Shown in pieces: positions 52,128 to 52,627 of a DNA stretch of 64,000 bases. How positions within the stretch are numbered: the first letter of the stretch is position 1; each line of letters begins with the position of its first letter. Position numbers and translations under genes: made by a program. The notes below the pieces were generated by a model, which saw only the letters and a program-made list of their open reading frames with translations, had not been told where the DNA came from and did no database searches. Source of the stretch: Parcubacteria group bacterium GW2011_GWC1_36_108 (lineage in GTDB: Bacteria > Patescibacteriota > Minisyncoccia > Moranbacterales > GWC2-37-73); assembly GCA_000991245.1 (NCBI GenBank), contig LBRD01000002.1, positions 25,906 to 89,905 of the forward strand, read 5' to 3'.

Positions 52128-52183
52128 TAAAATAACCCCAGTTAAATAATGTGGAGTACCACAATTTAACGGGGCAAGTAAAT
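52128..52183 (+). promoter_or_regulatory. Conserved 5' leader hairpin, copy 2, preceded by an extended -10 promoter TGCTATAAT (52097-52105)
   Basis: AACCCCAGTTAAATAATGTGGAGTACCACAATTTAACGGGGCAAGTAAAT-ATG. The CCCCAGTTAAAT/ATTTAACGGGG stem encloses a TGTGG-AGTA-CCACA hairpin. The GGGG RBS is sequestered. Confidence 0.7.
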
Positions 52184-52627
52184 ATGAAAAAGTATTTTAA
52201 GCAAGTTGTTTTTTCTTTGGTGCTAGCGATTGTGGGGATTTCTTTTTCTCCGATGATGACTTTGGCAGCAGATTGGGGTGCTACTTATAATTCAGCAACT
52301 GGTGGTATTAATGTTGGCATTGGCTCAAATGGATCAATGAGCGGTGGATGGCAAACATCAAATCCGTATAATCTTCCATCGGGAAGCATCTTAGGAATTC
52401 TTTCCAATCTTCTTTTTTGGCTGTTGGCTGTTTTTGCAATTATGGGTGTGATTGGTTTTGTGCTTTCCGGCATTTGGTACTTGCTTTCTGCGGGAGATGA
52501 AGGTATGGCTGATAAAGGCAAGGCAGGAATGAAATGGTCTATTGTTGGAATTATTGTTGGTCTTTCCGGATTTATCATCATGCAAGCCGTGAGCGCACTC
52601 TTGAGTGGAGGAAGCAAGACATTCTAA
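52184..52627 (+). CDS. Pilin-like protein with signal peptide (family paralog)
   Basis: GFVLSGIWYLLSAGDEGMADKGKAGMKWSIVGIIVGLSGFIIM. Start taken after the leader hairpin. Confidence 0.55.
   Translation: MKKYFKQVVFSLVLAIVGISFSPMMTLAADWGATYNSATGGINVGIGSNGSMSGGWQTSNPYNLPSGSILGILSNLLFWLLAVFAIMGVIGFVLSGIWYLLSAGDEGMADKGKAGMKWSIVGIIVGLSGFIIMQAVSALLSGGSKTF

Follow-up and report, generated by a model that had tools for sequence, protein, structure and literature searches.

Three copies of a hairpin element in the window

The gene at 52184..52627 on the + strand encodes a secreted protein of the T4SS_pilin family (Pfam) and is immediately preceded by a small structured element, here called copy A (52135-52183, +), which recurs before two further genes of the window, that is, the whole 64-kb stretch of DNA that was analysed (GC 36%; most of its genes lack an SD sequence). 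Copy A scores 69.3 bits against a covariance model of the family, and its parts follow one another along the + strand: an A at 52135 and then CCCC (52136-52139), which pairs with GGGG (52171-52174) as P1; a bulged A (52140); GTTAAAT (52141-52147), which pairs with ATTTAAC (52164-52170) as P2; a second bulge, AA (52148-52149); an inner hairpin, TGTGG-AGTA-CCACA (52150-52163); and a tail, CAAGTAAAT (52175-52183), which abuts the ATG at 52184. The upstream context (52042..52103, +) consists of a terminator-like hairpin (52042-52083) followed by an extended -10 sequence, TGCTATAAT (52095-52103), and the transcription start predicted there would place copy A about 25 nt into the 5′ UTR.

Copy B (22798-22845, +; 57.9 bits) stands in the same relation to a gene for a calcineurin-like metallophosphoesterase (22846..23571, +), which bears an LpxH-like label in some sources. 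In this copy P1 is formed by ACCT (22798-22801) and GGGG (22833-22836), with one U.G wobble and one mismatch; a bulged A (22802) leads into P2, in which GTTAAAT (22803-22809) pairs with ATTTAGC (22826-22832), again with one U.G wobble; the inner hairpin reads TATGG-ATTA-CCATA (22812-22825); and the tail, likewise CAAGTAAAT (22837-22845), abuts the ATG at 22846. Its context (22730..22787, +) comprises TGCTATAAT (22730-22738) and then a GC hairpin with a T-run (about 22757-22787), and all four syntenic genomes keep this promoter and terminator-like leader, those with an empty site included. Copy C (31362-31515, +) lies between the stop codon of a pilin gene (31350-31352) and the ATG at 31516 of a gene for a PrgI-family protein of the T4SS-like cluster (31516..31965, +). 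Its 5′ arm (CCCC, 31363-31366; A, 31367; GTTAAAT, 31368-31374) and its 3′ arm (ATTTAAC, 31502-31508; GGGG, 31509-31512; TAA, 31513-31515), both on the + strand, enclose an interior of 124 nt (31378-31501) that holds two further hairpins.

An earlier note on this DNA had put the identity of the sequences before the starts at 22846 and 52184 at about 85%, and the comparison bears this out, copies A and B being about 88% identical (6 differences in the 53 nt up to and including the ATG). It had also described a third copy with separated arms before the PrgI-like gene at 31516, which is copy C, and had offered one recent duplication that included both 5′ coding ends as an account that would overturn its own; such a duplication does not fit, as the resemblance of A and B ends at the ATG, and their upstream flanks and coding sequences are unrelated. 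The full degenerate pattern has 2 matches in the window against 0.00 expected and the 5′ arm, CCYAGTTAAATAAT, has 3 against 0.12 expected, and a scan of the 64 kb with the covariance model found copies A, B and C only.

The element is in frame with the genes after copies A and B, and the two extensions would read MDYHNLAGQVN-M and VEYHNLTGQVN-M. A coding extension was rejected on the grounds that the signal peptide of the pilin begins at ATG 52184 and that most phosphoesterase orthologues begin at MELNY. The public 252-aa model of the phosphoesterase begins at ATG 22813, inside copy B, and gene callers that place the start of the pilin at GTG 52151, inside copy A, are wrong.

A fold conserved through covariation

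Copies A, B and C share a fold in which CCCC, a bulged A and GTTAAAT are followed by one or more variable hairpins and then by ATTTAAC, GGGG and YAAR. The predicted fold of copy A (-18.3 kcal/mol, z -4.2) agrees with the stem that had been drawn around the TGTGG-AGTA-CCACA hairpin; the predicted folding energy of copy B is -12.1 kcal/mol (z -2.6), and the interior of copy C is predicted to form two hairpins (-35.7 kcal/mol, z -4.8). Where copies A and B differ within stems, one pair of the inner hairpin shows a compensatory change on both sides, from G-C to A-U, and two differences yield G.U wobbles. The AUG and the 9-nt spacer before it are unpaired in the predicted folds, and no conserved unpaired core able to bind a ligand was found, the conserved unpaired nucleotides being the two bulges only.

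An exact-pattern scan of one genome per species placed the element in 58 genome loci, mostly of Patescibacteria (Moranbacteria, Parcubacteria, Staskawicz-, Lipton-, Nealson- and Saccharibacteria), with several MAGs carrying more than one copy; in these 58 loci, a sister locus (L059) and the window, the covariance model recovers about 65 confident copies. The family architecture is A-CCCC-A-GTTAAAT-AAT-(interior)-ATTTAAC-GGGG-YAAR, with inverted-repeat ends (CCCC(A)GTTAAAT and ATTTAACGGGG). Between the arms lie 0 (a loop of 5 nt), 1, 2 (giving a three-way junction) or more variable hairpins, and the consensus length ranges from 36 to about 155 nt. The AAT after the 5′ arm is not conserved among copies that were found without requiring it.

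The fold is conserved through covariation. A genome-wide motif and covariance search and a check of the stem in relatives, both proposed with the original observation, yielded the 58 loci, abundant compensatory change in relatives and a stem that is conserved in a leader or intercistronic region. Compensatory change affects each of the four inner pairs in a set of 22 copies with one hairpin, where 97% of the cells are paired, and the covariation signal is lost when the partner columns are shifted; the 65 covariance-model matches give the same picture. The 5′ CCCC arm lay outside the search pattern, yet it is CCCC or departs from it by C-to-U changes only (at three inner positions). Among divergent copies, P2 is altered on both sides (GTGAAAT/ATTTCAC, GTAGA/TCTAC), and one copy has P1 flipped to CGGG/CCCG. 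Covariation in P2 was tested by a metagenome scan in which the third P2 base was not T and its partner was left free, which returned at least 120 loci; among the matches listed, 117 of 123 are paired (G:C 107, C:G 8, G:T 2) and 6 are not (G:A 4, C:C 1, A:C 1).

The compensated-stem version (GTGAAAT/ATTTCAC or GTCAAAT/ATTTGAC) is abundant in sediment bacteria. The matches listed come from sediment and groundwater contigs over a wide range of GC and end in GGGG-CAGGC or GGGG-TAAAC, and the metagenome copies often stand in tandem arrays with a period of 49-55 nt. No copy was found in viral contigs, and a viral origin was set aside on this account. No Rfam 15 family was found at the three loci of the window, either at the gathering score or at E up to 10 (the best sub-threshold overlap there reached 21.6 bits against a cut-off of 88); the GTGAAAT-type arrays had no Rfam match either, and no description of the element was found in the searchable literature by sequence strings and topic. 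An excess of TTCG (51 against 4 CGAA), considered as a possible sign of folding as RNA or as DNA, stems mainly from one subfamily.

The variable interior bears directly on the least probable of the readings considered, namely that the element is a DNA-level signal, whether a portable promoter whose -10 box would be AATAAT or a palindromic operator bound by a dimeric regulator. In copy A, AATAAT does precede the ATG by 33 nt, much as other -10 boxes of the window do, and the two arms form an inverted repeat; however, the arms stand anywhere from 5 to 124 nt apart, a range that no fixed promoter or operator geometry would allow (a promoter of the form TTAAAT-17-TTTAAC as much as one with an AATAAT -10), the AAT is unconserved, the interior covaries as a hairpin, and TGCTATAAT promoters already lie upstream of copies A and B. 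An intrinsic terminator was rejected as well: there is no U-run after the hairpin and no room for a promoter before the ATG.

Placement before start codons and history of the sites

In about 24 of 30 single-hairpin Patescibacteria copies, GGGG is followed by an ATG at a distance of 7-16 nt, polarity is sense in roughly 24 of 26 Patescibacteria copies, and in all 16 co-directional gene pairs in which a start codon closely follows the element, the element is nearer to that start than to the upstream stop. The GTGAAAT-type metagenome copies, among the matches listed, show no association with start codons. GGGG itself is not the SD, since in SD-using relatives GGAG directly follows the tail of the element (GGGG-TAAA-GGAG in L017, L085 and L171; GGGG-CAAG-GGAG in L040 and L113). 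The earlier note had taken GGGG for the only SD-like sequence and had placed it inside the stem; the placement holds, whereas the resemblance carries little weight where most window genes are SD-less, and GGGG as an SD was rejected on this ground and on that of the true GGAG found behind the element in relatives.

What lies downstream varies widely. Across genomes, the 26 genes behind the element match 36 Pfam families (25 are listed, with one gene each), among them IMPDH, RRF, NusA, YidC, SMC, CorA, LemA, T2SSF, FtsX, GalT and RRM, and the genes include frr, nusA, guaB, yidC and smc. rRNA genes are among the neighbours too, with a copy about 18 nt ahead of the 5′ end of a 23S gene in L011 and another about 100 nt ahead of a 16S gene in L009. 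These placements and a resemblance to UUUAAC raised the possibility of an rRNA antitermination boxA, which was rejected: the segment is base-paired and most copies precede mRNAs.

The public proteins that match the window bear the names of the Parcubacteria/Moranbacteria MAGs GW2011_GWC1_36_108 and GWC2_37_73. The orthologous sites were compared in the syntenic loci of three relatives (L059/L185, L061 and L062/L186) and in L184. Identity of IF2, DHH and SBP makes L059/L185 the sister of the window and leaves L062/L186 and L061 as outgroups. Site A, before the pilin gene, is filled in the window and in L184, which is near-identical to the window there, and is empty in L059/L185 and L062/L186 (L061 not sampled). 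Site B, before the phosphoesterase gene, is filled in the window and in L059 (42/47 identical) and empty in L061 and L062 (L184 not sampled). Site C, between the pilin and PrgI genes, shows the same distribution, being filled in the window (with the 124-nt interior) and in L059, where the inner hairpin is the 12-nt CUGCC-UAC-GGCAG, and empty in L061 and L062 (L184 again not sampled). The MAG of L061 bears copies at other loci (L028, L046). An A-run abuts the ATG at every empty site; at the filled sites the element and its tail lie between the A-run and the ATG. Neither in the comparison of filled with empty sites at A, B and C nor in the Y1_Tnp insertions described below was a target-site duplication found, beyond an ambiguous single A.

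The copies were thus gained at different times in the lineage of the window. On the simplest history, two copies were gained before the window and L059 parted and copy A was gained later; A and B have similar inner hairpins. Since the genes downstream are unrelated and orthologous sites are empty, the sharing of the element by three loci of the window reflects the copying of a repeat and not a regulon. It had been proposed that the T4SS-like pilus genes and the metallophosphoesterase are under the joint control of an RBS-sequestering leader, which would act as a thermosensor or as the operator of a protein or sRNA. The appeal of that proposal lies in the same structured sequence standing before three window genes, two of them in the T4SS-like cluster, with GGGG in the stem; it is contradicted, however, and has become very improbable, as the genes downstream are functionally unrelated across genomes and extend to rRNA genes, the orthologous genes of relatives do without the element, the start codon and its spacer are not sequestered, the GGGG is not an SD, and, beyond the two bulges, there are no conserved unpaired nucleotides and no Rfam match. 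The element differs in the same respects from SD-sequestering riboregulators: the AUG and its spacer are unpaired here, the true GGAG of SD-using relatives lies behind the element, and the element is not conserved upstream of orthologous genes.

The synteny also weighs on a further alternative, that the element is a structure-specific single-strand DNA recombination site, integron attC- or Xer-like, through which a tyrosine recombinase would move the adjacent gene as a cassette. Like attC, the element appears to be recognised by structure, has conserved ends, an interior of variable length and extrahelical bases on one strand, and lies between ORFs, directly before the next start; GTTAAAT and ATTTAAC also fit attC GTTRRRY and RYYYAAC, respectively, and the window holds a Phage_integrase gene (43850-44815, assigned by synteny with L184), the only integrase-family gene noted. 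The order of the boxes is reversed with respect to attC, however, with GTTRRRY 5′ and RYYYAAC 3′ (GTTAAAT ... ATTTAAC on either strand), no cassette arrays occur, the copies lie 9 and 21 kb apart, the surrounding genes are stably syntenic in relatives with or without the element, and no integron integrase accompanies it, the window's integrase being a conserved Xer-like gene that is present also in relatives lacking copies. An attC or dif-like site was rejected for the wrong box order and the absence of arrays, and the alternative as a whole is extremely improbable.

Comparison with known repeats and the probable mode of spread

At loci outside Patescibacteria, genes for IS200-like transposases (Pfam Y1_Tnp) are interrupted by a discrete unit of 36 nt, A-CCCC-A-GTKAAAT-N9-ATTTMAC-GGGG-TAA. 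One and the same codon (WH^ITHRCH) holds the unit in L001 and L047 (GTTAAAT type) and in L169 (GTGAAAT type), another Y1_Tnp codon holds it in the opposite orientation in L050, a copy in a Y1_Tnp gene is read through in frame in L100 (PVKFEDHFTG), and the gene is split by a copy in L103; several in-gene copies bring in stop codons. The copies of other phyla are located within Y1_Tnp genes or at the ends of these genes, and the arrangement in which REP copies flank a RAYT gene was not seen. The link to Y1_Tnp could simply come from insertion into DNA that is dispensable. Neither the window nor about 0.6 Mb of Patescibacteria loci (genome fragments) yielded a transposase candidate; in particular, Y1_Tnp was not found in the window, and tblastn gave no Y1 gene in the loci. 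Among the loci covered, no autonomous element with the ends of the repeat appeared. A fixed 4-5-nt target 5′ of the element is likewise absent, the flanks varying (...AAAA, ...GGCAC, ...GGCAT, ...AAGCAG). Two points of interest in their own right are the start-codon-proximal placement in SD-poor genomes and the presence of the 36-nt unit at one codon of diverged transposase genes.

Several known repeats resemble the element in part, REP/REPIN sequences and Correia-type MITEs being the nearest. With REP and REPIN sequences and their RAYT (Y1 HUH) proteins in E. coli and Pseudomonas, it shares a short imperfect palindrome (minimal unit 36 nt here) in many non-coding copies, a fold on one strand with strand-marking bulges, an occurrence as single copies, pairs and arrays that are transcribed within operons, and, in the non-Patescibacteria loci, the link to Y1_Tnp genes. 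REPs carry a conserved GTAG-type tetranucleotide at the foot of the hairpin. The present element has no GTAG, its foot being A-CCCC-A-G on the 5′ side and GGGG-YAAR on the 3′ side; it lies 5′ of start codons and not, as is usual for REPs, 3′ of genes or between convergent genes; its interiors reach 124 nt or form three-way junctions; no flanked RAYT gene was seen; and its stem is nearly the same in sequence across phyla.

The Correia elements of Neisseria, a MITE family, have inverted-repeat ends, often lie just upstream of genes and are co-transcribed with them, and their hairpin is able to change the expression of neighbouring genes; their sites are present or absent between strains, and they measure 100-155 bp, with 26-bp terminal repeats and a TA duplication. 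The element is likewise small, with inverted-repeat ends, an upstream position and sites that are filled or empty, but its unit can be 36 nt, it makes no duplication, and its position with respect to the ATG is much tighter; more generally, it has the terminal inverted repeats of a MITE without the target-site duplication. Rickettsia palindromic elements (RPE), which are 100-150 bp long and mostly coding, are comparable as palindromic repeats inside ORFs that may be read through in frame (as in L100), and they differ in that copies of the present element are mostly non-coding, with stops in several of the in-gene copies. For a palindromic element derived from IS200/IS605, a constant stretch of 4-5 nt that serves as target or cleavage site should precede the left hairpin, which is not the case here.

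Strand bias offers a further clue. The GC skew of the window's + strand is +0.08 to +0.21 throughout, including stretches dominated by minus-strand genes, and it therefore reflects replication and not gene direction. Of 49 informative Patescibacteria-type copies, 41 have the top strand of the element on the G-rich strand, a count that is confounded with gene orientation, as all 32 abutted genes lie on the G-rich strand (29 in sense polarity to the element and 3 in reverse). Gene orientation thus confounds a bias that would fit insertion into one replication strand, as with single-strand DNA transposons. In a comparison of 35 copies meant to tell folding as RNA from folding as DNA, the predicted fold is more stable on the sense strand in 15 and on the antisense strand in 14, with 6 ties; in three copies the G.U polarity is suggestive.

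Taken together, the copies are probably a short interspersed palindromic element that has been multiplied by copy-and-paste in the manner of a REP or MITE and that serves as a generic leader hairpin at most. Such an element would multiply within genomes, its conserved stem with two bulges presumably being the feature recognised by a protein, and the likeliest mobiliser may be an HUH/Y1-type single-strand DNA transposase acting at the replication fork; activity at the fork would explain why the top strand tends to lie on the G-rich strand. Once inserted, a copy would be transcribed within a leader or intercistronic RNA, where its stable hairpin may reach up to, but not into, the ribosome-binding region and keep clear of the start codon; any effect on the downstream gene would be generic, e.g., protection of the 5′ end or insulation of the start site, and would not couple these genes through a specific signal. 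The tight position before start codons is untypical of REPs or MITEs and runs counter to this account.

Conservation at filled sites touches on the same question. Orthologous copies in L033 and L045 are 47/47 identical between flanks of 77-79% identity, and those of the window and L059 are 42/47 identical between flanks of 72-83%; together with the tight position, a conservation of the copies above that of their flanks could indicate use of the element by the host. The main rival reading, a somewhat unlikely one, builds on this and takes the element for a generic RNA leader module that hosts put to use, the hairpin being retained for aiding expression and its duplication being secondary; its roles might include the definition or protection of mRNA 5′ ends, intercistronic processing or the set-up of the ribosome-binding region where SDs are few, with the invariant stem read by a conserved protein. 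This alternative gains from the sense polarity and the 7-16 nt between GGGG and ATG in most single-hairpin Patescibacteria copies, from the direct contact of the element with the SD where an SD exists, from the 16 of 16 co-directional pairs, from the unpaired AUG, from orthologous copies that are better conserved than the flanking coding sequence and from the RNase Y encoded in the window (61024-62541). It is set back by close relatives whose same genes lack the element, which is thus not required, by GTGAAAT-type copies that are unlinked to start codons, by the near-equal stability of the two strands, by copies within ORFs and tandem arrays and by the want of an identified trans-acting factor. 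A comparison may be drawn with the 5′ stem-loops of ompA, the Bacillus STAB-SD and the RNase III sites of phage T7, in which a stable stem also lies directly 5′ of the ribosome-binding region, leaves SD and AUG free and recurs between cistrons; those stabilising or processing hairpins were established experimentally, and none of them is a mobile repeat whose stem sequence is invariant. The narrower proposal of a portable 5′ leader module in Patescibacteria is unlikely; on this proposal the mobile hairpin would install itself, or be kept, precisely where the ribosome-binding region has its 5′ margin, and as RNA it would fix or shield the 5′ end of the mRNA or aid 30S loading in genomes with hardly any SDs.

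For the organism at hand, the hairpin is no evidence of co-regulation of the T4SS-like pilus and the phosphoesterase. The probable copy-and-paste element represents instead a widespread structured repeat family with very clean covariation, absent from Rfam 15 and the searchable literature, that has made recent gains among close Moranbacteria relatives and whose relatives in sediment bacteria nest in IS200-like transposase genes. ORF starts that are called inside the element give rise to false N-terminal extensions in public protein models, and the covariance model could be used on Patescibacteria MAGs to mask the repeats and to flag insertion polymorphisms. Should the placement ahead of start codons reflect function, the element would provide a handle on translation starts and mRNA ends in reduced, SD-poor genomes; and if the leader-module reading were true, expression in reduced genomes would be built in part from a copy-and-paste RNA part.

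Gene starts and the phosphoesterase leader

Public gene models have been started inside the main hairpin element (ATG 22813 for the phosphoesterase and GTG 52151 for the pilin in the window; also P0001 and P0003, and 10589-11065 in the near-identical locus L184), and these in-element starts add 11 false residues, namely MDYHNLAGQVN on the phosphoesterase and VEYHNLTGQVN on the pilin. The phosphoesterase leader (window 22730-22787) carries an extended -10 sequence, TGCTATAAT, and immediately after it a terminator-like GC hairpin with a T-run. This arrangement is kept in 4/4 syntenic genomes and, where the main element is absent, lies ~10-15 nt upstream of the ATG; it could serve for attenuation or for termination in both directions.

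Further repeats and possible mobile units

A second hairpin-repeat family, distinct from the main element, has the consensus YCTGGATTCC(N)GC-loop-GC(N)GGAATGACAA and is present in the window at 15465 (minus strand) and at 15576, 22668, 32062, 37122, 50304, and 51539 (all plus strand), as well as in loci L010, L049, and L059 from other genomes. For its 9-mer GGAATGACA, 10 occurrences were counted where 0.5 would be expected, and the family resembles the Neisseria dRS3 repeat (ATTCCC-N8-GGGAAT). The stem of the second hairpin in two-hairpin copies of the main element (ATTCCNGC...GCNGGAT) is likewise similar to this family. Many intergenic regions of the window also hold short tandem arrays with a unit of 7-9 nt (11409-11439, 35478-35508, 41462-41499, 54436-54470, 55873-55903, 58333-58362, 58978-59009, and 59097-59130), often with a start codon directly downstream; the units are ATTGGAA, TAAAGTTCA, CTAAGAAG, ATTCAAA, TTTGAAA, and TAGGAAT/TTCCTAA, and a kindred TGTTAAAT array is found in locus L179. 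In a 1-kb non-coding stretch of a Planctomycetota contig (L036, 6500-7450), hairpins of the GTTAAAT and GTGAAAT types are intermixed with GCTCAAAGG/GCTGAAAG repeats that occur in runs.

Because it is found in the window and L184 and is missing between the corresponding pilin genes in L185 and L186, the DUF559 (Vsr-like endonuclease) gene at 52667-53068, within 52643-53114, is probably a small inserted cassette. The gene lies between two similar hairpins, CTCCCCT..AGGGGAG directly 5' of its ATG and TCTCCCC..GGGGAGA directly 5' of the next pilin gene. Elsewhere, a group I intron match (11573-11827, 73.5 bits) begins 41 nt downstream of a tRNA match (11458-11531), and the next ORF (11935-12627) encodes an HTH domain; this region is possibly an intron-associated mobile unit.

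Syntenic MAGs and copies in transposase genes

Loci syntenic with this Moranbacteria window occur in MAGs named 'uncultured Bdellovibrionales' (CAYVME01, which holds L061, L028, and L046; CAZXUS01; CAYTIK01; CAZMNQ01), with identities to the window from 62% (PrgI) up to 93% (IF2), and of 88-93% for IF2, DHH, and the phosphoesterase. These labels look wrong.

Three diverged genes for Y1_Tnp (IS200-like) transposases contain a 36-nt unit of the main element (L001 506-545, L047 1164-1203, and L169 2425-2464) at one shared codon, WH^ITHRCH, and its P2 stem is compensated among them (GTTAAAT vs GTGAAAT). The unit is in frame, yet contains stop codons, and the surrounding Y1_Tnp reading frame is still recognisable. 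The unit could stem from a single ancient insertion into a proliferating IS, or it could be a sequence that is precisely removed.
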